The position numbers and the translations under genes are program-made. A model generated the notes under the pieces. The model did not search any database. It was given only the letters and a program-made list of their open reading frames with translations, and was not told where the DNA came from. A DNA stretch of 64,000 nt, taken from Candidatus Aenigmatarchaeota archaeon. Its GTDB lineage: Archaea > Aenigmatarchaeota > Aenigmatarchaeia > PWEA01 > JACQIF01. Shown here piece after piece: positions 1-57,249 of the stretch; position 1 is the stretch's first letter; each line of letters begins with the position of its first letter. The stretch lies in NCBI GenBank assembly GCA_016432325.1, contig CP066684.1, forward strand, positions 384,001 to 448,000. The letters run 5' to 3'.

Positions 1-231
1 CAAAGCTATGACGATTCCTGCGGCGCGTATCGTTCCTGCCGACCCCTGTATGCCTTGCAGTATCGGAACAACTTCTGGCGCGAACTCGGTCGCTCGCGGT
101 ATTGCGACAGGAGCCTGCGTCTCGACGGCGCCTGCGACGCTGAAAAGTCCGACTCCGATGACAATCAGGAGAATCCCTATCAGAACAAGCGCCACATATC
201 GAAGCAGTTCCGCGTCGAACTTGAGGGGCAT
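1..231 (-). CDS. Hypothetical membrane protein, runs off the window edge
   Basis: Manual translation MPLKFDAELLRYVALVLIGILLIVIGVGLFSVAG...; hydrophobic helices; divergent from rpl7ae. Confidence 0.65.
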   Translation of the reverse strand, partial: MPLKFDAELLRYVALVLIGILLIVIGVGLFSVAGAVETQAPVAIPRATEFAPEVVPILQGIQGSAGTIRAAGIVIAL

Positions 232-337
232 GGATATACGTGCCCGTTGTTGCCTTTAAAGCTTCTGCTTTAGGCTTCCCTCCGCGGTCGCAAAGCCTTT
301 AAATACCTTACCTTCGTTCCTAGACTACCAATGAACA

Positions 338-361
338 ATGATGTGCGTCTTAACGCGCTGA
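338..361 (+). promoter_or_regulatory. K-turn-like motif in the rpl7ae leader (candidate L7Ae autoregulation site)
   Basis: ATGATG (box C-like), stem GTGCGT/ACGCGC, CTGA (box D); downstream of TATA TTTAAATA 298-305. Confidence 0.55.
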
Positions 362-425
362 AGGAGGCGTTTGAAACTGCGGTTTCGCGCCTCCCGGTTC
401 GTATTAACGCACTGAAGGAGGTGTT
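346..425 (+). repeat. 26-bp direct duplication (346-371, 400-425) flanking a GAAAC-TGCG-GTTTC hairpin
   Basis: CGTCTTAACGCGCTGAAGGAGGCGTT vs CGTATTAACGCACTGAAGGAGGTGTT, period 54. Confidence 0.85.
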
Positions 426-428
426 CGT

Positions 429-842
429 ATGGCTGAAGATTTGAGTAAGATTTCCGAACAGAATGTTCGGAATACTTCGAAAGAGGACCTTTCGAAGAAA
501 GCGCTTGAAGCGGTCGAACTTGCAAGGAGCACCGGTTCCCTCAGAAGGGGAACGAATGAAGTTACAAAGGCGGTAGAACGCGGACAAGCAGAACTGGTCG
601 TTATAGCAAAAGACACGGATCCGCCTGAAGTGGTCATGCACTTGCCGCCGCTCTGCGAGGAGAAGAACATTCCGTACGTTCACGTGCCTAACAAGGAAGA
701 GCTCGGACGCGCTTCTGGGATAGAAGTCAAGTGCGCCGCTATCGCAATAGCCAAGGCAGGCGAAGCGAAGAAACTGATAGACGAAATAAGAAAGGCGAAT
801 GGCATGGAGAGCAAATCGCCTAAGGAAAAAAAGAAAGAGTAA
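429..842 (+). CDS. rpl7ae: 50S ribosomal protein L7Ae with a 16-aa N-terminal insertion
   Basis: [38 protein letters not shown]; SD GGAGGTG. Confidence 0.97.
447..498 (+). repeat. Double-hairpin element, in frame within rpl7ae
   Basis: AAGATTTCCGAACA-GAA-TGTTCGGAATACTTCGAA-AGAGGACCT-TTCGAAGA; homologous to 9924-9978 and 10853-10918. Confidence 0.85.
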
Positions 843-852
843 GGTGATTTGA

Positions 853-1056
853 ATCCCAGTCGATGCCGTTCCGGCCGAAGTCGTTCAGTTGCTCGGACGC
901 AGCGGCGTCAAGGGAGTCTTCAAGGTTCGGGCGAAGGTATTGGAAGGACCGGACAAGGGAAAGATTCTCCTGCGCAACGTCATGGGCCCCATACGCAAGG
1001 GCGACATACTGATGCTTCGCGAGACTGAGATGGAGAGCGCCGGCGGGTTCGGTTAA
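853..1056 (+). CDS. rps28e: 30S ribosomal protein S28e (absent from the ORF track; apparent ATC start)
   Basis: [21 protein letters not shown]...[30 protein letters not shown]; conserved position between rpl7ae and rpl24e. Confidence 0.93.
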
Positions 1057-1065
1057 GGCGATTTT

Positions 1066-1248
1066 ATGGACTGCACATTCTGCGGCGAAACAATGCAACG
1101 GGGAAAGGGAAAGATTGTCGTCAAGAAGACCGGCGAAACGTCCGCATACTGCTCTTCAAAATGCGAGCACAACGCGCTTCTGGGCCGCAGCGCAAGAAAG
1201 ATTCAGTGGACGCGCGTGTCGCGCGTCGCCAGAGGCAAGGAGAAGTAA
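1066..1248 (+). CDS. rpl24e: 50S ribosomal protein L24e
   Basis: CTFCG...GKG...YCSSKCEHN...R...WT zinc-finger motif. Confidence 0.95.
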   Translation: MDCTFCGETMQRGKGKIVVKKTGETSAYCSSKCEHNALLGRSARKIQWTRVSRVARGKEK

Positions 1249-2751
1249 TCAAGACACTCTTCTGACCAACGGCGTTGGAATGCGCTGCGGGACTTCGAGC
1301 GTTAGCGCACCAGACGCATCCGTCTTCTCGATGAATTTGTGTGTTCGCCTGCCCATGTCATCGATTCCTGTCAGCATCCATTCATTTTCCGGTTCAACTA
1401 TGGGATCCATCGGTTGGTCCGAGTGTCTGTGGAGCAGCGAGTACTCGTCCATCGTCAGCATGCGAACGCGGTCGTCTTCGATGCTCATTCTCCACGCCAC
1501 GTTTCTCCATCCCGGCGCGACCTTGCCGATGGTCACTATCGCCTCGGCCCCGCTGCCGTAGAATCCCAGTCCCACGTATTTGCCTTCTAGGCGCTCTCCG
1601 TGAATCGCGGCTTGCTTGAACATGGAAGCGAGGGCGATGGGCTGAGACGCCGTATAAGCGTTTCCTGTGGACCGCGACCATACGACCGAGTCCTCAAAAA
1701 CGCTGTCCATGTAGTTCCTGAACGGCTTGACCTGCCTGAGCTTCTTCATATGATCGCTCATCGCCTTGTCAAAAGCCTTCACAGAAGAGAACGACTCCAA
1801 AAGCGGTTCCTTCCCTATTTCCGCTTCTATCTCTTCGCCTTCGGCCGTGCCGCGGATGTCGTGGAGGAACCATCTCGCCATTCCCTTGCGTCCCATGTCA
1901 GGGAACGGTATGTGCAGAGCCGCCTTTCTCATTACGTCTTTCATCGGTTGGTTTTTGCCGACAATTCCCTTCCTTCTCGCAATTGTGCGCGCGGCGTCAG
2001 CGGCGTCGCGCATTGTATCCTGATAAACGTCTATTGACAACTGGCTGTCGACGAGAGGCATCTCCGCGTGGGATTCGAAACTCGTCGCGCCTCCCGGACT
2101 CCTGACGGCCATCTTGGTGGGCTTCCAGAAATCGTATGCGTCCCTCGAACTGTAGCCGCGCACTTCCGGGTCGAGCACGAGCAGTCTCGGATCTTGCTTT
2201 ATCCGTATGGCGACTCCGCCGAACCCGCCTGTTATCTCTCCTGCGCTGCCGAGAGGATATTTGCCATGGTCGACGGCCACTACGATGGCCTCTCTCCCGC
2301 TGACTCCCGGAGACGGATCCGCGAGTATCCAGTCCGCGCAGTCCAGAATGGCCGCGCCTGCGGCGTTGCACGCGAACTTGTACTCCATGGTATGCCAATG
2401 GTTCGTCCTGCTGGAACCAAGGTTCTGTCCAAGCATTCCCTTTACGTCTGTGGTGAACGGTTTGGCGTTATCGTAAGAACTCTCGGTGGCGCCGTACAGC
2501 CTGCCGATTTGCTCGGGCTGTATGTCGTTCTGAGCCATCAGCCGATAGACCGCTGTCGCGCCCACCGTCGCGATCGTTTGGCCTCCATCGGGAACTGCCG
2601 CATGCTGCACTCCGAGATGACGCAATTTCCCTTCGAACTCTTCGGCAGAAAGCTTTCCGCGTCTCGCCTCGATAAACTCCTCGCCCAAAAGGTCCAAACG
2701 CGTGGCTGGTACGTAGACGTAGATATCGTCGATACCGACAGACCTTGACAA
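1249..2751 (-). CDS. mvaS: Hydroxymethylglutaryl-CoA synthase (long bacterial/haloarchaeal type)
   Basis: VGIDDIYVYVP, ATESSYDNAKP, EYKFAC (catalytic Cys), HIPF, GNAYTAS, YGSG; TTG start at 2751 with SD GAGGGAG. Confidence 0.88.
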   Translation of the reverse strand: MSRSVGIDDIYVYVPATRLDLLGEEFIEARRGKLSAEEFEGKLRHLGVQHAAVPDGGQTIATVGATAVYRLMAQNDIQPEQIGRLYGATESSYDNAKPFTTDVKGMLGQNLGSSRTNHWHTMEYKFACNAAGAAILDCADWILADPSPGVSGREAIVVAVDHGKYPLGSAGEITGGFGGVAIRIKQDPRLLVLDPEVRGYSSRDAYDFWKPTKMAVRSPGGATSFESHAEMPLVDSQLSIDVYQDTMRDAADAARTIARRKGIVGKNQPMKDVMRKAALHIPFPDMGRKGMARWFLHDIRGTAEGEEIEAEIGKEPLLESFSSVKAFDKAMSDHMKKLRQVKPFRNYMDSVFEDSVVWSRSTGNAYTASQPIALASMFKQAAIHGERLEGKYVGLGFYGSGAEAIVTIGKVAPGWRNVAWRMSIEDDRVRMLTMDEYSLLHRHSDQPMDPIVEPENEWMLTGIDDMGRRTHKFIEKTDASGALTLEVPQRIPTPLVRRVS

Positions 2752-2946
2752 GCAGCTCCCTCGAAAGGACTCCCGATTAGGCGTGAACGCGATATATACG
2801 CGGCTTCGGCCATTGACGAACGCGACGTCGCTTGGTGCTAGAGGGCCGTATAGCCGTCCGTTGGGCACGAAAACGGGCCCATAGGACCTTTCTTGAACAC
2901 GATGCGTTTTTAAGCATGCGCTCCCACCAAGAAATCGGGTATCCTT

Positions 2947-4671
2947 ATGCCAATCCGCCAACCCATCGTATCAGTACTTGGCCACGTCGACCATGGAAAG
3001 ACAAGCCTGCTGGACCGCATTCGCACATCGTCCGTTGCAGCGAAGGAAGCCGGCGGCATCACGCAGCACATCGGCGCCACTGAGGTGCCGCTCTCCACGA
3101 TAAAAGAGATTTGCGCGTCGCTGCTCAGGGAACAGCAGATTAAGATTCCGGGCCTCTTGTTCATCGACACGCCGGGACACGAAGCGTTCACGACGCTGCG
3201 TCGCCGGGGCGGTTCCATCGCCGATCTGGCCGTTCTGGTCGTCGACGTAACAGAAGGCTTCCAGCCGCAGACCATCGAATCGCTGACGTTCCTGCGCGAG
3301 TTCCGCGTGCCGTTCATCGTAGCCGCAAACAAGATAGACAAAGTCCGGGGTTGGGTTCGCCACGCAGGCACGTTCGCGGATTCATACAAGAAACAGAACA
3401 AGGAGACGCGCGAACTGCTCGACAACAAGATATACGAGCTGATGGGGCAGCTGAGCGAGCACGGCTTCGTGGCCGACCGCTACGACCGCATCTCGGACTT
3501 CAGGTCAACCGTCATTATCGTGCCTGTATGCGCGGCGAATGGCGAAGGCGTCCCGGAATTGATGGCGATGCTTATCGGTCTCGCGCAGCAATTTTTGACG
3601 CAAAAGCTCGAAATAAAGGGCGACATAGGCGCCGGTTCTGTCTTGGAGATAAAGGAGGTCAAAGGCCTCGGAACGACGATAGATGTGATACTTTATGACG
3701 GCGTCGCGCGCAAGGGCGACTTCCTGGTCATTGGAGGAGAGACGCCGATAGTGACGACGGTCAAAGGCATATTCAAACCGCGGCCGCTCGCCGAGATGCG
3801 CGTTGAGAGGCAGTTTGCTCCAGTCGATGAAATCATCGCGGCGGCCGGCAGCAAAATGGTCGCGCCGAATCTTGAGGGAGTCATACCGGGCTCGCCCATA
3901 CGCGTCGTTCCGCACAAGAGCGACGTGGATGCGGCTGTGCGCGAACTCAAGCGTGAGGTCGAAACGGTGACGTTCGAGAGCAGCAACGACGGCGTGCTCG
4001 TCAAGGCGGACACTCTCGGCGCTCTTGAAGCGATGATAAAGATTATCACATCCAAGGGAATTGCGATAAGGAAGGCCCGTATAGGCCCCGTATCGCGCAC
4101 GGATGTGATGGAGCAGCGCGGCGTGGCCGAACCGTACAACGTGGTAATCTTCGCGTTCAACGTTCCTGTCGCGCCGGAAGCCGAGGCGCTCAGGGAGAGC
4201 GTCCATATCTTCGCCGGCAACGTGATTTACAGGCTCATCGAGGACTACGTCGCGTGGACGCACACCAGAAAGGAGGAGCTCAAGCTTGCGCGCCTTGAAG
4301 GAGTGGTGCGCCCAGGGAAGATAAGGCTCCTGCCCGGGATGGTCTTCCACGCGGCCAAACCCGCCATAGTCGGCGTTGAAGTTCTCGGGGGTCTGATAAA
4401 ACCGGGATACTCATTAGTGAAGGAAGGACGCATCGTGGGCCGTTTGTTGCAGGTGCAACACGAAGGCGCGAACGTTCAGGAGGCAAAGACCGGCGACCGT
4501 GTCGCCGTATCGATAGAGGGAGCCACCGTAGGCCGCGGTTTGGAAGAACGCGACGTTCTATACACTCTGCAGAGCAAGGAGAACGTCAAGAAGCTCGAAG
4601 AGCTTAAAGACCTGCTCACGCGCGACGAGATTGACGTGCTGGAAGAGATAAAGGGGCTCATGGGCGGCTAG
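2947..4671 (+). CDS. infB: Translation initiation factor IF-2 (aIF5B)
   Basis: IRQPIVSVLGHVDHGKT, GGITQHIGA, DTPGHEAF, NKID. Confidence 0.98.
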   Translation: MPIRQPIVSVLGHVDHGKTSLLDRIRTSSVAAKEAGGITQHIGATEVPLSTIKEICASLLREQQIKIPGLLFIDTPGHEAFTTLRRRGGSIADLAVLVVDVTEGFQPQTIESLTFLREFRVPFIVAANKIDKVRGWVRHAGTFADSYKKQNKETRELLDNKIYELMGQLSEHGFVADRYDRISDFRSTVIIVPVCAANGEGVPELMAMLIGLAQQFLTQKLEIKGDIGAGSVLEIKEVKGLGTTIDVILYDGVARKGDFLVIGGETPIVTTVKGIFKPRPLAEMRVERQFAPVDEIIAAAGSKMVAPNLEGVIPGSPIRVVPHKSDVDAAVRELKREVETVTFESSNDGVLVKADTLGALEAMIKIITSKGIAIRKARIGPVSRTDVMEQRGVAEPYNVVIFAFNVPVAPEAEALRESVHIFAGNVIYRLIEDYVAWTHTRKEELKLARLEGVVRPGKIRLLPGMVFHAAKPAIVGVEVLGGLIKPGYSLVKEGRIVGRLLQVQHEGANVQEAKTGDRVAVSIEGATVGRGLEERDVLYTLQSKENVKKLEELKDLLTRDEIDVLEEIKGLMGG

Positions 4672-4726
4672 GCTGTCCGGGACTCGGCCGCGAAGCCTAT
4701 AAATCATTTCGTTCTCCATTCAGTGC

Positions 4727-4789
4727 ATGGACGCCGGGAAACCATTGGTTTCAATCGTCCATTGAGTAGACGGTGAAGTTCAATGGACG
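4727..4789 (+). repeat. Start-duplication hairpin cassette
   Basis: ATGGACG...GAAACCATTGGTTTCAAT-CGTCCATTGA...GGTGA...ATGGACG, period 56. Confidence 0.85.
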
Positions 4790-5391
4790 TACTTGACGCT
4801 ATCCAGAAAAGGCGCTCTGTCACGGAGTTCCAGGAAAAGAAGGTGGAAATGGAGAAGGTAGGAGTCCTTCTGGAAGCGATACGATGGGCTCCTTCTGCCG
4901 GCAACAGGCAGCCATGGGAAGTCGTCGTTATCGATGACCGGAAAACCATAGAGGATCTCGCGGATATCGCCCACAACCAACATTGGTTAAAGAAGGCGCC
5001 TCTGGTCATGGTGGTCTGCATCAACCACAAGCTGGCCGAAGGGACCTTCGGTGTCCGCGGAAAGAACCTTTACGCCATCCAGGCCACGGCCACGGCCGCC
5101 GAGAATGCGATGCTCACGGCGACCGAACTGGGACTGGGAACGTGCTGGATTGACGTCTACGATGAAGAGAAGGCGTCACGGCTTCTGGCCTGTCCCAAGC
5201 ACACTGTGCCTGTGATTGCGTTGGCCGTCGGATATCCGCTGGCTGTCCCAAAGCCTCCTCCCCGCTATGAGATAGCGTCCTTCTCCTACTACAACGGCCA
5301 CGGCAAGCTGCTCGAGTTCGAGTGGAAGGGCATTGCAGAGCACCTGAAAGAGTTCAAGGAGAGATTGCTGAAGAGCCTTGAGAAGTACTGA
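4783..5391 (+). CDS. Nitroreductase family protein
   Basis: AIQKRRSV, APSAGNRQPW, LGLGTCWI. Confidence 0.93.
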   Translation: MDVLDAIQKRRSVTEFQEKKVEMEKVGVLLEAIRWAPSAGNRQPWEVVVIDDRKTIEDLADIAHNQHWLKKAPLVMVVCINHKLAEGTFGVRGKNLYAIQATATAAENAMLTATELGLGTCWIDVYDEEKASRLLACPKHTVPVIALAVGYPLAVPKPPPRYEIASFSYYNGHGKLLEFEWKGIAEHLKEFKERLLKSLEKY

Positions 5392-8941: not shown

Positions 8942-8995
8942 TTACTGGTCACCTCTAATTCTTCCGAGCTGTAAAATTGAAACCGAAGGTTTCAT
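8942..8995 (-). other. Linker mini-ORF cassette MKPSVSILQLGRIRGDQ between rnp3 and rnp2
   Basis: TAA-t-ATGAAACCTTCGGTTTCAA...GAGGTGACCAGTAA-ATG. Confidence 0.7.
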
Positions 8996-8996
8996 A

Positions 8997-9704
8997 TTAC
9001 TCCTCGACCTCCACGCCCTTGTACAGTATCTTGCCTGCCAGCTTCTTCTTGTTCGCCTGCACGCGCGCCTCGCAGGTGTCGCTCACGGCGCGCATGGACT
9101 CCTCCAGGGTCAGCCCGAGAATCTGCGCCAGGGCCGCGAGTTCACGGGGATCGCGCAACCCCCACGCGTCCTTTGCGCCTGAAGTGACCACGATGGGCGT
9201 GCCGAACTCCTTGCAGAGCATCACGTTGCGTTCCATGTGGTTCAGGACGTGCGTGCGGACGCGCTTGTATGTCGTCAGAAGCTCCCCCATATTCAATTCG
9301 AGCGCAACGCCGTTCTGGGCCGCGCTCTGCGTGACCACGTGGTCTATGCCAGAGTCTACGCGCTTGAACTCGGGATGCGCTATGACGTCGACGCGGCCGT
9401 CTTCGGCCGCGGCCCTGTTTATCGCGTAGTCCCCGCCTGAAACAAGCACGAGCTCTGCGATTTCCCTGTACTTCGCAAGGGCGCGCTTCAGGGTCTTTAT
9501 CGAATCGGCCTGTATTTCCACGGCACCGACAAGCTCGAGGCCGCTTTTCTGCGAGGCGTCGCGCAGACGTTTCCTGAGCTCCCTGAAAGCGTCGAATTTC
9601 TGGTGGTATTCGACGACAGCGAGTCCTGAGAATCCGAGTGTCGCGGCTACCTCGACCGTCTTTTCCAGATCCTGCGCGTGAACGTGCAAGTCATAGAATT
9701 TCAT
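8997..9704 (-). CDS. rnp3: RNase P protein component 3 (Rpp30)
   Basis: MKFYDLHVH, GGDYAINRAA, DSGIDHV, SGAKDAWGLRDPREL; adjacent to Pop5. Confidence 0.93.
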   Translation of the reverse strand: MKFYDLHVHAQDLEKTVEVAATLGFSGLAVVEYHQKFDAFRELRKRLRDASQKSGLELVGAVEIQADSIKTLKRALAKYREIAELVLVSGGDYAINRAAAEDGRVDVIAHPEFKRVDSGIDHVVTQSAAQNGVALELNMGELLTTYKRVRTHVLNHMERNVMLCKEFGTPIVVTSGAKDAWGLRDPRELAALAQILGLTLEESMRAVSDTCEARVQANKKKLAGKILYKGVEVEE

Positions 9705-10621: not shown

Positions 10622-10899
10622 TACCAGTCGACTTCGGGGCCTTTAACGTGTCTCTCCTGTTCGTGGGGCTGACAAGCCTTCTGGAGCTGGACCAGACTGA
10701 CGTGATGCATGGCCATAGCATAGGAGAACGCATCTATCTGTTTTAGCATCTCGGCAACCCGATATCCCAGATCTTCCATTTCCCCACTGGACACCGATGC
10801 GCGAGGACCATAGATAAACATGACTACGTCGCTAGCCGTAGTGCCTGTTTTGAGATTTTCGAAACCACAGTTTCGAATACTCAGAATCGGCGCATTCAT
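10618..10899 (-). CDS. Hypothetical 93-aa ORF whose N-terminus is element-derived
   Basis: ATGA overlap with the rpl15e stop; no recognisable motif. Confidence 0.4.
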
Positions 10900-10919
10900 C
10901 CATAGTGCCGATTCTGAGA
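10832..10919 (-). repeat. Synonymously recoded duplication of the rpl15e 3' end around a double hairpin
   Basis: TCT CAG AAT CGG CAC TAT GGA TGA vs TCT CAA AAC AGG CAC TAC GGC TAG. Confidence 0.9.
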
Positions 10920-11578: not shown

Positions 11579-11645
11579 ATGGGAGCCGCATGAAACTGAA
11601 GTTTCAAAGCTCCCATGAAGAATTGGTGATGTCATGGGAGCCGCG
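11579..11645 (+). repeat. Start-duplication hairpin cassette
   Basis: ATGGGAGCCGCA-TGAAACTGAAGTTTCAAA-GCTCCCATGA...GGTGA...ATGGGAGCCGCG, period 55. Confidence 0.88.
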
Positions 11646-56622: not shown

Positions 56623-57249
56623 TCATGGCCTCCACAGCGTCACGCGCAGAGTGCAGTTGCGCGAATTCTCCGTCATCACGTAGCGGTCTATTGAAATCTG
56701 TTCCTTGGCGCCCGCCGGCTGGGCGCCTACTGTCAGGTTCGTGGACTGGACCGTGCAGTTGGAGCCGCCGCTTGTCAGCAGCTGCACGTAAAGGCTGTTT
56801 GGTCCTGTCGAGAGGTTGCCGCGCAGGTCTTTGGCCGTCATCCGCGTCAGCGCGATGAGCTTGTCATCCGCAAGGCGATGGTCTCCGTATGCCAATCCCA
56901 CGCTCTTGATATTCGTCGAGTTGTACCAGCCGTCGGGCTCTCCTGACGTAAGAACGAGCTGGTCGCTAAGCCCGATGAGCCTGTCCTGCGTTCTCCTGAA
57001 CTCCTCGGAGTCTGCCACGGAATGGGATATGGAAGACTCCGCGTGCAGGACGCCCGCTATCGATATCGTGAATATGACAAGCGCCAACACGACGTCCAGA
57101 GAGACGGCCTGTCCCTTTCCCGACAGAAGGAGGGAAAACTGAAACCGCGTTTCAGATTTTCCTGCCCCAAGGGCGGGAAAATCGTTCGCACGCGGCGAGG
57201 CCGCGGCCCCGCCGTCTTCAGCACGTCTGCACATTCGTACCGTCCGCAT
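56623..57249 (-). CDS. Pilin-like protein with palindrome-expanded leader
   Basis: KG|QAVSLD; TSGEPDGW. Confidence 0.82.
   Translation of the reverse strand: MRTVRMCRRAEDGGAAASPRANDFPALGAGKSETRFQFSLLLSGKGQAVSLDVVLALVIFTISIAGVLHAESSISHSVADSEEFRRTQDRLIGLSDQLVLTSGEPDGWYNSTNIKSVGLAYGDHRLADDKLIALTRMTAKDLRGNLSTGPNSLYVQLLTSGGSNCTVQSTNLTVGAQPAGAKEQISIDRYVMTENSRNCTLRVTLWRP

Follow-up and report, generated by a model that had tools for sequence, protein, structure and literature searches.

A start-duplicating double-hairpin insert that has probably turned a leaderless archaeal nitroreductase gene into a leadered one

INTRODUCTION

Why do the first seven bases of an archaeal nitroreductase gene occur twice, with a hairpin, a mirror image of the start and an SD motif between the two copies? 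The question touches on two matters that remain open in archaeal gene expression, namely how genes move between leaderless and SD-led initiation, and how short upstream ORFs (uORFs) and structured 5′ leaders originate. The gene belongs to a Candidatus Aenigmatarchaeota archaeon (GenBank assembly GCA_016432325.1, contig CP066684.1; here G000), whose single-contig genome has 874,869 bp, a G+C content of 56% and an estimated completeness of 90%. The window that we analyzed is a 64,000-nt stretch of this contig, bases 384,001–448,000, and coordinates are those of the window unless they are given as genome positions. An earlier note, made from the letters of the window, had proposed two readings of the duplicated start: a two-state translational switch, or an element that rescues the expression of its host gene by carrying its own SD.

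RESULTS

The gene start and the upstream promoter

The site is the 111-nt spacer between an aIF5B/IF2-type GTPase gene (2947–4671) and a nitroreductase-family gene of 202 aa (4783–5391, + strand; PF00881, Pfam E = 2e-29). Its start was compared with those of 19 same-order orthologues and of the closest database homologues (57–71% identity). The homologues, 39–71% identical, all align from residue 1 as M[DE]xL[DE]AI, so the real start is at 4783, and the second of the two ATGGACG copies is indeed the one that begins the protein, as had been claimed. The leader described below is absent at the 19 orthologous loci, where the genes begin ATGGA.

Upstream of the first ATGs of 839 long ORFs, a T/A-rich box at −29 to −23 was the sole strong signal, accompanied by a weaker G-rich signal at −11 to −8. 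We built a promoter matrix from the 263 genes with a TATA signal at −29 to −23. Its best match in the spacer, at 4689–4710 (+ strand; TATA CTATAAAT at 4698–4705), scores 9.2, which lies in the top 0.08% of background (99.92nd percentile) and at the 90th percentile of gene-aligned scores. The start that it implies is exactly 4727, the first base of the first ATGGACG, and the matrix thus backs the proposal that this copy sits in a leaderless position. About 230 genes of G000 have a leaderless-type promoter and few of these have an SD too; an SD-like motif precedes 34% of the remaining genes. Because the 16S rRNA of G000 ends in GGAUCACCUCCU, GGTGA is a genuine SD core in this organism.

Architecture of the nitroreductase leader

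The two copies of ATGGACG (4727–4733 and 4783–4789, + strand) form an exact 7-nt direct repeat with a spacing of 56 nt, and 49 bases (4734–4782) separate them. To judge from its position, copy 1 is probably the displaced original start of the gene, at the 5′ end of the transcript. It opens a uORF of 12 codons (4727–4765, + strand; peptide MDAGKPLVSIVH; stop TGA at 4763–4765) that reads ATG GAC GCC GGG AAA CCA TTG GTT TCA ATC GTC CAT TGA. The uORF passes through hairpin 1 (GAAACCA-T-TGGTTTC, 4738–4752, + strand), the signature hairpin of the insert family introduced below, and terminates 17 nt upstream of the real ATG, within the 5′ arm of hairpin 2.

That 5′ arm, CGTCCATTGA (4756–4765, + strand), is the reverse complement of the real start region. 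We call it the mirror arm: it is complementary at 10 of 10 positions to 4780–4789 and at 7 of 7 to 4727–4733. With its 3′ partner TCAATGGACG (4780–4789, + strand), which contains the real ATG (4783–4785) and the whole of copy 2, it makes hairpin 2, a perfect 10-bp stem. The loop motif GGTGAAGTT (4772–4780, + strand) includes the SD GGTGA (4772–4776), 6 nt before the real ATG. All of the sequence features listed in the earlier note are thus present, with coordinates off by at most 1 nt. The complementarity also confirms that the arm can form 7 bp with copy 1 or 10 bp with the real start, the two pairings being mutually exclusive, although the arm coordinates implied earlier were 1 nt off.

Two details set this copy apart from the family norm. 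Its hairpin 1 contains no internal ATG, and the stem-loop is one base longer than the commonest form of 14 nt; the extra base shifts the frame, so that the decoy ORF ends at the TGA inside the mirror arm. Exact pieces of 15–28 nt from the nitroreductase cassette are unique in the genome, and the family is defined by architecture and short motifs, not by long identity.

Two small matches lie just upstream of copy 1 on the + strand. TCCAT (4715–4719) is complementary to ATGGA (4727–4731), and TCCATTCAGT (4715–4724) recurs as TCCATTGAGT (4758–4767). Both may have arisen by chance or be a remnant of some older event.

A family of cassettes in the genome

The same order of parts recurs genome-wide in cassettes of 51–57 nt, each with a start copy, a GAAAC...GTTTC hairpin, a mirror of the start, a GGTGAWG loop and the real start. 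We took a census of all hairpins with 5-bp stems and 3–7-nt loops, in which GAAAC...GTTTC was the most enriched stem of G000 (67 observed, 3.1 expected; 22-fold). At 23 of these 67 hairpins there is both a flanking direct repeat of at least 6 nt and a mirror of at least 6 nt, compared with a mean of 5.0 and a maximum of 9 for random sites. A count that does not depend on the stem sequence gave 17 twin hairpins with an adjoining direct repeat of at least 8 nt, a figure that excludes five artefact matches in a terminal run of N, against 1–3 in decoy windows. Decoy windows and shuffles served as controls for this count; a reversed-sequence control was dropped as uninformative, because reversal preserves repeat relations.

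Layouts nearly identical to that of the nitroreductase leader lie at genome positions 72172, 46714, 755663, 395591 (window 11591), 297997, 481594, 722260 and 757410. At 72172, for example, the order is ATGAACC-aaa-TGAAACcaccGTTTCA-aaa-GTTCATG-cagtgcaGGTGAAGaac-ATGAACC. Spacing between repeats is 56 nt at the nitroreductase gene and 51–57 nt in other copies, and in five copies hairpin 1 lies exactly 27 nt from the ATG despite mirrors of 7–10 nt, which suggests that the mirror overwrites sequence of the element and does not add to it. Cassettes are also found at the 5′ ends of tRNA genes and between genes of G000. We considered whether the palindrome might be an operator for a transcription factor and rejected this reading, as the same stem, with loops of 3–7 nt, occurs at 67 places that include gene ends and tRNA genes.

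The neighboring cassette in the window (11579–11641, + strand) precedes the gene for a predicted membrane protein of 71 aa (start 11634). It consists of a TATA box, CATGGGAGCCGC, TGAAACtgaaGTTTCA, the 10-nt mirror GCTCCCATGA, GGTGATG and a second CATGGGAGCCGC; its spacing is 55 nt, and it lies 6.9 kb from the nitroreductase copy.

Since a MAFFT alignment of 16 cassettes was structurally inconsistent, we built a covariance model, R1, from four other copies with matching geometry, among them the cassette at 11579–11641, with both hairpins as structure. In this leave-one-out design R1 finds the nitroreductase cassette at 4725–4788 over its full length (model positions 1–61) with 32.4 bits, at E = 2.3e-6 in the window and 3.1e-5 in the genome, the best match in the window after the training copy. 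Weaker R1 matches in the window, at 10848–10918 (+ strand; E = 0.013; flanking repeat TAGTGCC) and 57128–57180 (+ strand; E = 0.083; flanking repeat GGGAAAA), each have a GAAAC hairpin and do not stand at a protein start. In the leader of the L7Ae gene (338–430, + strand), a GAAACtgcgGTTTC hairpin (373–386) lies between two copies of CTGAAGGAGG, and R1 matches the hairpin only (E = 0.2–0.4).

An Rfam search with the nitroreductase leader matched no family. In the literature we found neither a published description of start-duplicating double-hairpin inserts of this kind nor a published name for them, and the family is apparently undescribed.

Empty sites and distribution in relatives

To see whether the cassettes are insertions, we compared G000 with the only other species of its genus (here G001; all 90 contigs), which shares about 75% DNA identity in genes. 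At least ten cassettes of G000 face empty orthologous sites in G001. At genome position 297997, G001 has a TATA box, 25 nt and ATGAAGTGCC, and G000 has the same followed by a cassette and a second ATGAAGTGCC. At 68223, an SD and ATG that occur once in G001 occur twice in G000, 60 nt apart. The cassette at 392979 (window 8949–9006, − strand) separates a stop codon from the start codon of the following gene; in G001 the stop TAG and the ATG abut. At 321308 and 122282 the duplicated stretch includes the original SD and measures about 17–27 nt with mismatches.

The nitroreductase locus itself falls in an assembly gap of G001, with contig C27 ending in the 3′ end of the IF2 gene and C65 starting in ftsZ; the G000 protein found no nitroreductase match in G001, where the locus is this gap. 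Scans of metagenome contigs for nitroreductase relatives reached at most 48% identity, and four DNA sequencing runs from one groundwater study, probably the source of the locus, showed the cassette unchanged and yielded no contig without the insert. G001 contig C63 bears a strong cassette (4925–4998; R1 E = 1e-10) that ends 10 nt before the end of the contig. We considered this as the missing nitroreductase start and rejected it: by synteny it belongs elsewhere, and the contig contains no more than 10 nt of the gene. Short-read assemblies may break at cassettes, with the end of C63 and the G001 gap at the nitroreductase locus as examples.

One gene, rpl44e, has a start cassette in both G000 (genome about 370,400–370,520) and G001 (C59 1484–1547, − strand). 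In each, repeat and mirror match the first codons of that species' own gene (ATGATAAT... and ATGGAAGTC..., respectively), so that either the parts of the cassette have evolved in concert or the two insertions are independent.

We surveyed R1 matches in 41 relatives. There are 16 copies in G000, 4 in G001 and 1–3 each in the same-order families f3, f4 and f6, with none in the nine genomes of family f5 and none in 19 genomes of other orders. The pattern TGAAAC-N3-7-GTTTCA occurs 35 times in G000, twice in G001 and 0–9 times in 39 other relatives; the backwards control gave 0. A stricter pattern gives 9 copies in G000; none of 370 other genomes of the phylum has more than 2. A clear cassette is present in another family of the order (genome G009, contig C21 2276–2338, + strand; R1 E = 8.5e-8), where GAAACCtaGGTTTC and the mirror TTTTGCAT lie between the copies of an 18-nt repeat, GGTGAAGTTTATGCAAAA, which includes GGTGAAGTTTATG. 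The range of the family is limited to this order of DPANN archaea, with a strong expansion in G000.

SD motifs and decoy ORFs across cassettes

An SD-like loop motif is present in 9 of the 14 cassettes that a long ORF follows and in 0 of the 21 others. The GGTGAWG motif recurs in other cassettes, and the two bases after GGTGA are AG or TG in 6 of 9 SDs of cassettes compared with 10 of 69 ordinary SDs. A strong promoter aims at copy 1 in 8 of 16 start cassettes.

In at least 6 of the 16 start-associated copies (72172, 46714, 755663, 297997, 481594 and 722260), the decoy ORF that begins at copy 1 stops in the TGA of GGTGA, 4–7 nt before the real ATG, and in four further start cassettes it ends within 0–4 nt of the real ATG. 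The decoy ORF is often in frame with the ATG inside the ATGAAAC stem. The copy at 757410, with a spacing of 51 nt, is the only one whose spacing is a multiple of three; it has no stop and no SD, and the protein is extended by 17 residues. The uORF peptide is not conserved between cassettes.

Predicted folding and competing readings of the leader

In the predicted fold, hairpins 1 and 2 together reach −18.9 kcal/mol, and the alternative pairing of the mirror arm with AUG1 reaches −15.5 kcal/mol. Across the predicted ensemble the SD is unpaired with a probability of 0.95–1.0, AUG1 is essentially always unpaired, and the unpaired probability of AUG2 is about 0. Before copy 2 has been transcribed, the hairpin of AUG1 with the arm is the stable predicted fold.

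Does the arm then toggle a switch? In a dedicated riboswitch or attenuator, a signal such as uORF stalling, temperature or a ligand would decide whether the arm pairs with AUG1 or with AUG2. The two exclusive pairings of similar energy would suit such a device, as would the AUG1:arm hairpin, which would form first during transcription, and to this extent the two-state switch of the earlier note is structurally possible. For the regulatory part of that proposal we found no support. Orthologues of the nitroreductase lack the leader, the layout recurs in front of unrelated genes and tRNA genes, no Rfam family matched, the peptide varies from cassette to cassette, and AUG2 would be reachable in both states. 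We consider a dedicated switch unlikely. The label "anti-start arm" likewise implies a repressor, and the arm is more likely to be a structural by-product of the element.

A reading that we hold to be equally improbable is that the insert acts as an internal promoter. The 3′ half of hairpin 1 and the A-rich spacer (TTTCAAT/TTTCAAAA) would restart transcription a few bases before the real ATG, leaving the uORF and SD unused and the gene effectively leaderless. In several cassettes TATA-like matches scoring 1.7–5.4 (99th percentile of background, 3.9) do aim 0–6 nt upstream of copy 2, and the constant 27 nt from hairpin 1 to the ATG in five copies would fit this reading. At the nitroreductase locus, a weak second TATA-like match inside the cassette (4739–4761; score 2.0–2.5, 98th percentile) implies a start near 4777, and by this model transcripts could begin there and bypass both uORF and SD. 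However, the score of 2.5 is low beside the 9.2 of the upstream promoter. Moreover, the loop contains GGTGA exclusively ahead of protein starts, which speaks for a transcribed leader with an SD in use, and in most copies the decoy ORF ends precisely in the SD, which would be pointless if it were untranslated.

Two further explanations are much less probable still. That a 7-nt repeat, a 10-bp inverted repeat and an SD coincided by chance in an ordinary leader would agree with the unexceptional folding stability of the whole leader (z = −0.8) and with the rare coincidences to be expected when very many windows are scanned, but this explanation is highly unlikely given the leave-one-out R1 match, the 22-fold enrichment of the hairpin type and, 6.9 kb away, a cassette with the same order of parts and nearly the same spacing; what is beyond chance is the architecture of the cassette, not its folding energy. 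Removal of the insert from the RNA, intron-like or at a bulge-helix-bulge, would restore a leaderless mRNA, and the direct repeats would permit scarless removal of one 56-nt unit, but this too is very improbable, as hairpin 2 is a perfect 10 bp without a bulge-helix-bulge and the selection of SDs and the design of the uORF frame imply that the insert stays in the mRNA.

DISCUSSION

Bases 4734–4782, together with the seven duplicated bases, are a copy of a family of small double-hairpin inserts, and we think it probable that this copy made a leaderless gene leadered in a manner that preserves its expression. Of the two readings first proposed for the locus, an element that rescues host expression through its own SD is thus the one that is well supported, by the covariance model (E = 2.3e-6 in the window), by the ten empty sites in G001 at other cassettes and by the distribution of the loop SD (9/14 compared with 0/21).

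How might the conversion have come about? The nitroreductase gene would originally have been leaderless, with about 22 nt from the TATA box to ATGGACG. An insertion just behind the first seven bases of the gene would have left the old start as a decoy at the 5′ end of the mRNA and placed the gene behind a leader of 56 nt. The insert would supply the GAAAC...GTTTC hairpin, the arm that mirrors the start, the GGTGA in the loop of hairpin 2 and the reading frame in which the decoy ORF stops after 12 codons. On the present sequence, conversion of a leaderless into a leadered gene is the likely outcome.

The leader could be read as follows. Leaderless initiation on AUG1 would lead to translation of the 12-codon uORF, and the translating ribosome would melt the 10-bp hairpin that hides AUG2, after which the exposed SD could recruit a subunit to AUG2. 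Because the uORF stops 17 nt upstream of AUG2, unmasking of the hairpin is favored over true reinitiation, and the use of AUG2 would be mostly fresh initiation rather than termination-reinitiation. If AUG1 instead holds the arm, hairpin 2 could not form, and both SD and AUG2 would be open. Since both folding states would leave a route to AUG2, an expression-preserving, self-compensating insertion is a better reading than a regulated switch. The sequences show the anatomy of the leader, its membership of the family, the presence or absence of other copies in the two species and the promoter geometry; we infer the transcription start site, the translation of the uORF, its coupling to the hairpin, and the making or moving of the element.

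It is curious that a family with so many copies comes without a recognizable enzyme. Searches of the 90%-complete genome with PF01797, PF07282, PF00665 and PF00078 gave no match, and the controls matched; among those four families, no Y1/IS200 (RAYT) transposase, TnpB, rve (DDE) integrase or reverse transcriptase was detected. The flanking repeats measure 7 nt at the nitroreductase gene, 6–14 nt where exact at other copies, up to about 27 nt with mismatches, and 18 nt in G009. Classical transposition is doubtful, given that no enzyme was found among these families and that direct repeats vary between 7 and about 27 nt, and the element can be called only putatively mobile. One possibility, which we put forward tentatively, is an undescribed process in which a short hairpin module comes to rest where a transcription unit begins, duplicates a variable length of its target and acquires a reverse-complement copy of that target, perhaps by template switching. 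The outcome would be an insert that compensates for itself, with an SD of its own and a stop that closes the ORF of the displaced start. By this tentative scheme the targets of the module would be leaderless ATGs, SD-led starts and the 5′ ends of tRNA genes.

The locus matters beyond a single gene. Together with the other copies and the empty sites of G001, it would form a dated natural before-and-after series in which one small insertion makes the change from leaderless to SD-led initiation. The family also poses a mechanistic puzzle, in that the mirror arms are target-specific and the duplications variable, with no recognizable transposase. Its host genome is among the smallest of any cell, and such a genome would be expected to contain little selfish DNA. 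Annotation is affected too: cassettes give rise to false upstream starts and mini-ORFs, and breaks in metagenome contigs seem to fall where cassettes lie. If the undescribed process is real, it would be a natural and ongoing route from leaderless genes to SD-led genes with uORFs, and structured leaders and tRNA introns of DPANN archaea might in part derive from it.

How do the cassettes compare with known systems? In the attenuation leaders of ermC and cat, and in the coupling of coat and replicase in MS2, the downstream start is buried in a hairpin behind a short upstream ORF, and a ribosome on that ORF opens the hairpin. The nitroreductase leader resembles these in having a short uORF and then a start-hiding hairpin that, by the proposed model, a ribosome could open. 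It differs from them in that its SD lies in the loop and not in the stem, and in that its uORF starts on a leaderless AUG. Unlike the ermC and cat leaders, it is not conserved with its gene, being absent at 19 orthologous loci, and it recurs at unrelated genes. An archaeal intron would be marked by a bulge-helix-bulge site, two 3-nt bulges separated by 4 bp; hairpin 2 is instead predicted to be a perfect 10-bp stem with no such bulges.

With respect to termination-reinitiation, a stop-to-start distance of −8 to +10 nt is considered predictive of coupling (PMC6728339, PMC10666635), and in Haloferax and E. coli termination-reinitiation is down 40–80% at +14 nt and almost gone at about 20 nt (PMC10666635). 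The other cassettes with a stop 4–7 nt before the ATG, at least six in number, fall inside this range, whereas the gap of +17 nt at the nitroreductase gene lies outside it, at a distance where coupling was much weakened and differed from gene to gene. Template-switch mutations are known to create or extend perfect hairpins (PMC8794818), and expansion of inverted repeats has been described (PMC13100816). By analogy, template switching could write a reverse complement into the arm without an enzyme and without a change in length, which would fit the constant 27 nt. However, it leaves unexplained the shared GAAAC hairpin, the GGTGAWG motif and the direct duplication.

Bacterial palindromic inserts, such as Rickettsia palindromic elements (RPEs), the Correia elements of Neisseria and REP/REPIN sequences, are short (about 50–150 nt), hairpin-forming and multicopy, and expand in particular lineages. 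RPEs enter genes in frame, Correia elements contribute promoters and processing sites, and by preserving function such inserts are tolerated even within or beside essential genes. The cassettes are likewise short, hairpin-forming, numerous and lineage-specific, are present or absent at orthologous sites and probably preserve function. They differ in sitting on gene starts and transcript 5′ ends, with an SD and a closing frame, and in having a target-specific mirror arm and variable flanking repeats with no fixed target duplication. Compared with MITEs, of which a general prokaryotic review is available (PMC10969869), they have no terminal inverted repeats: the two termini of the insert (CCGGGAAAC... 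and ...GGTGAAGTTCA) do not form such a pair, and the inverted repeats are internal. Nor is their target-site duplication of fixed length, and no cognate transposase was found among the four families searched. REP/REPIN systems differ further in that G000 has no RAYT gene (PF01797 unmatched). The cassette is a new member of a small-insert family that differs from MITEs, REPs and RPEs in several defining respects.
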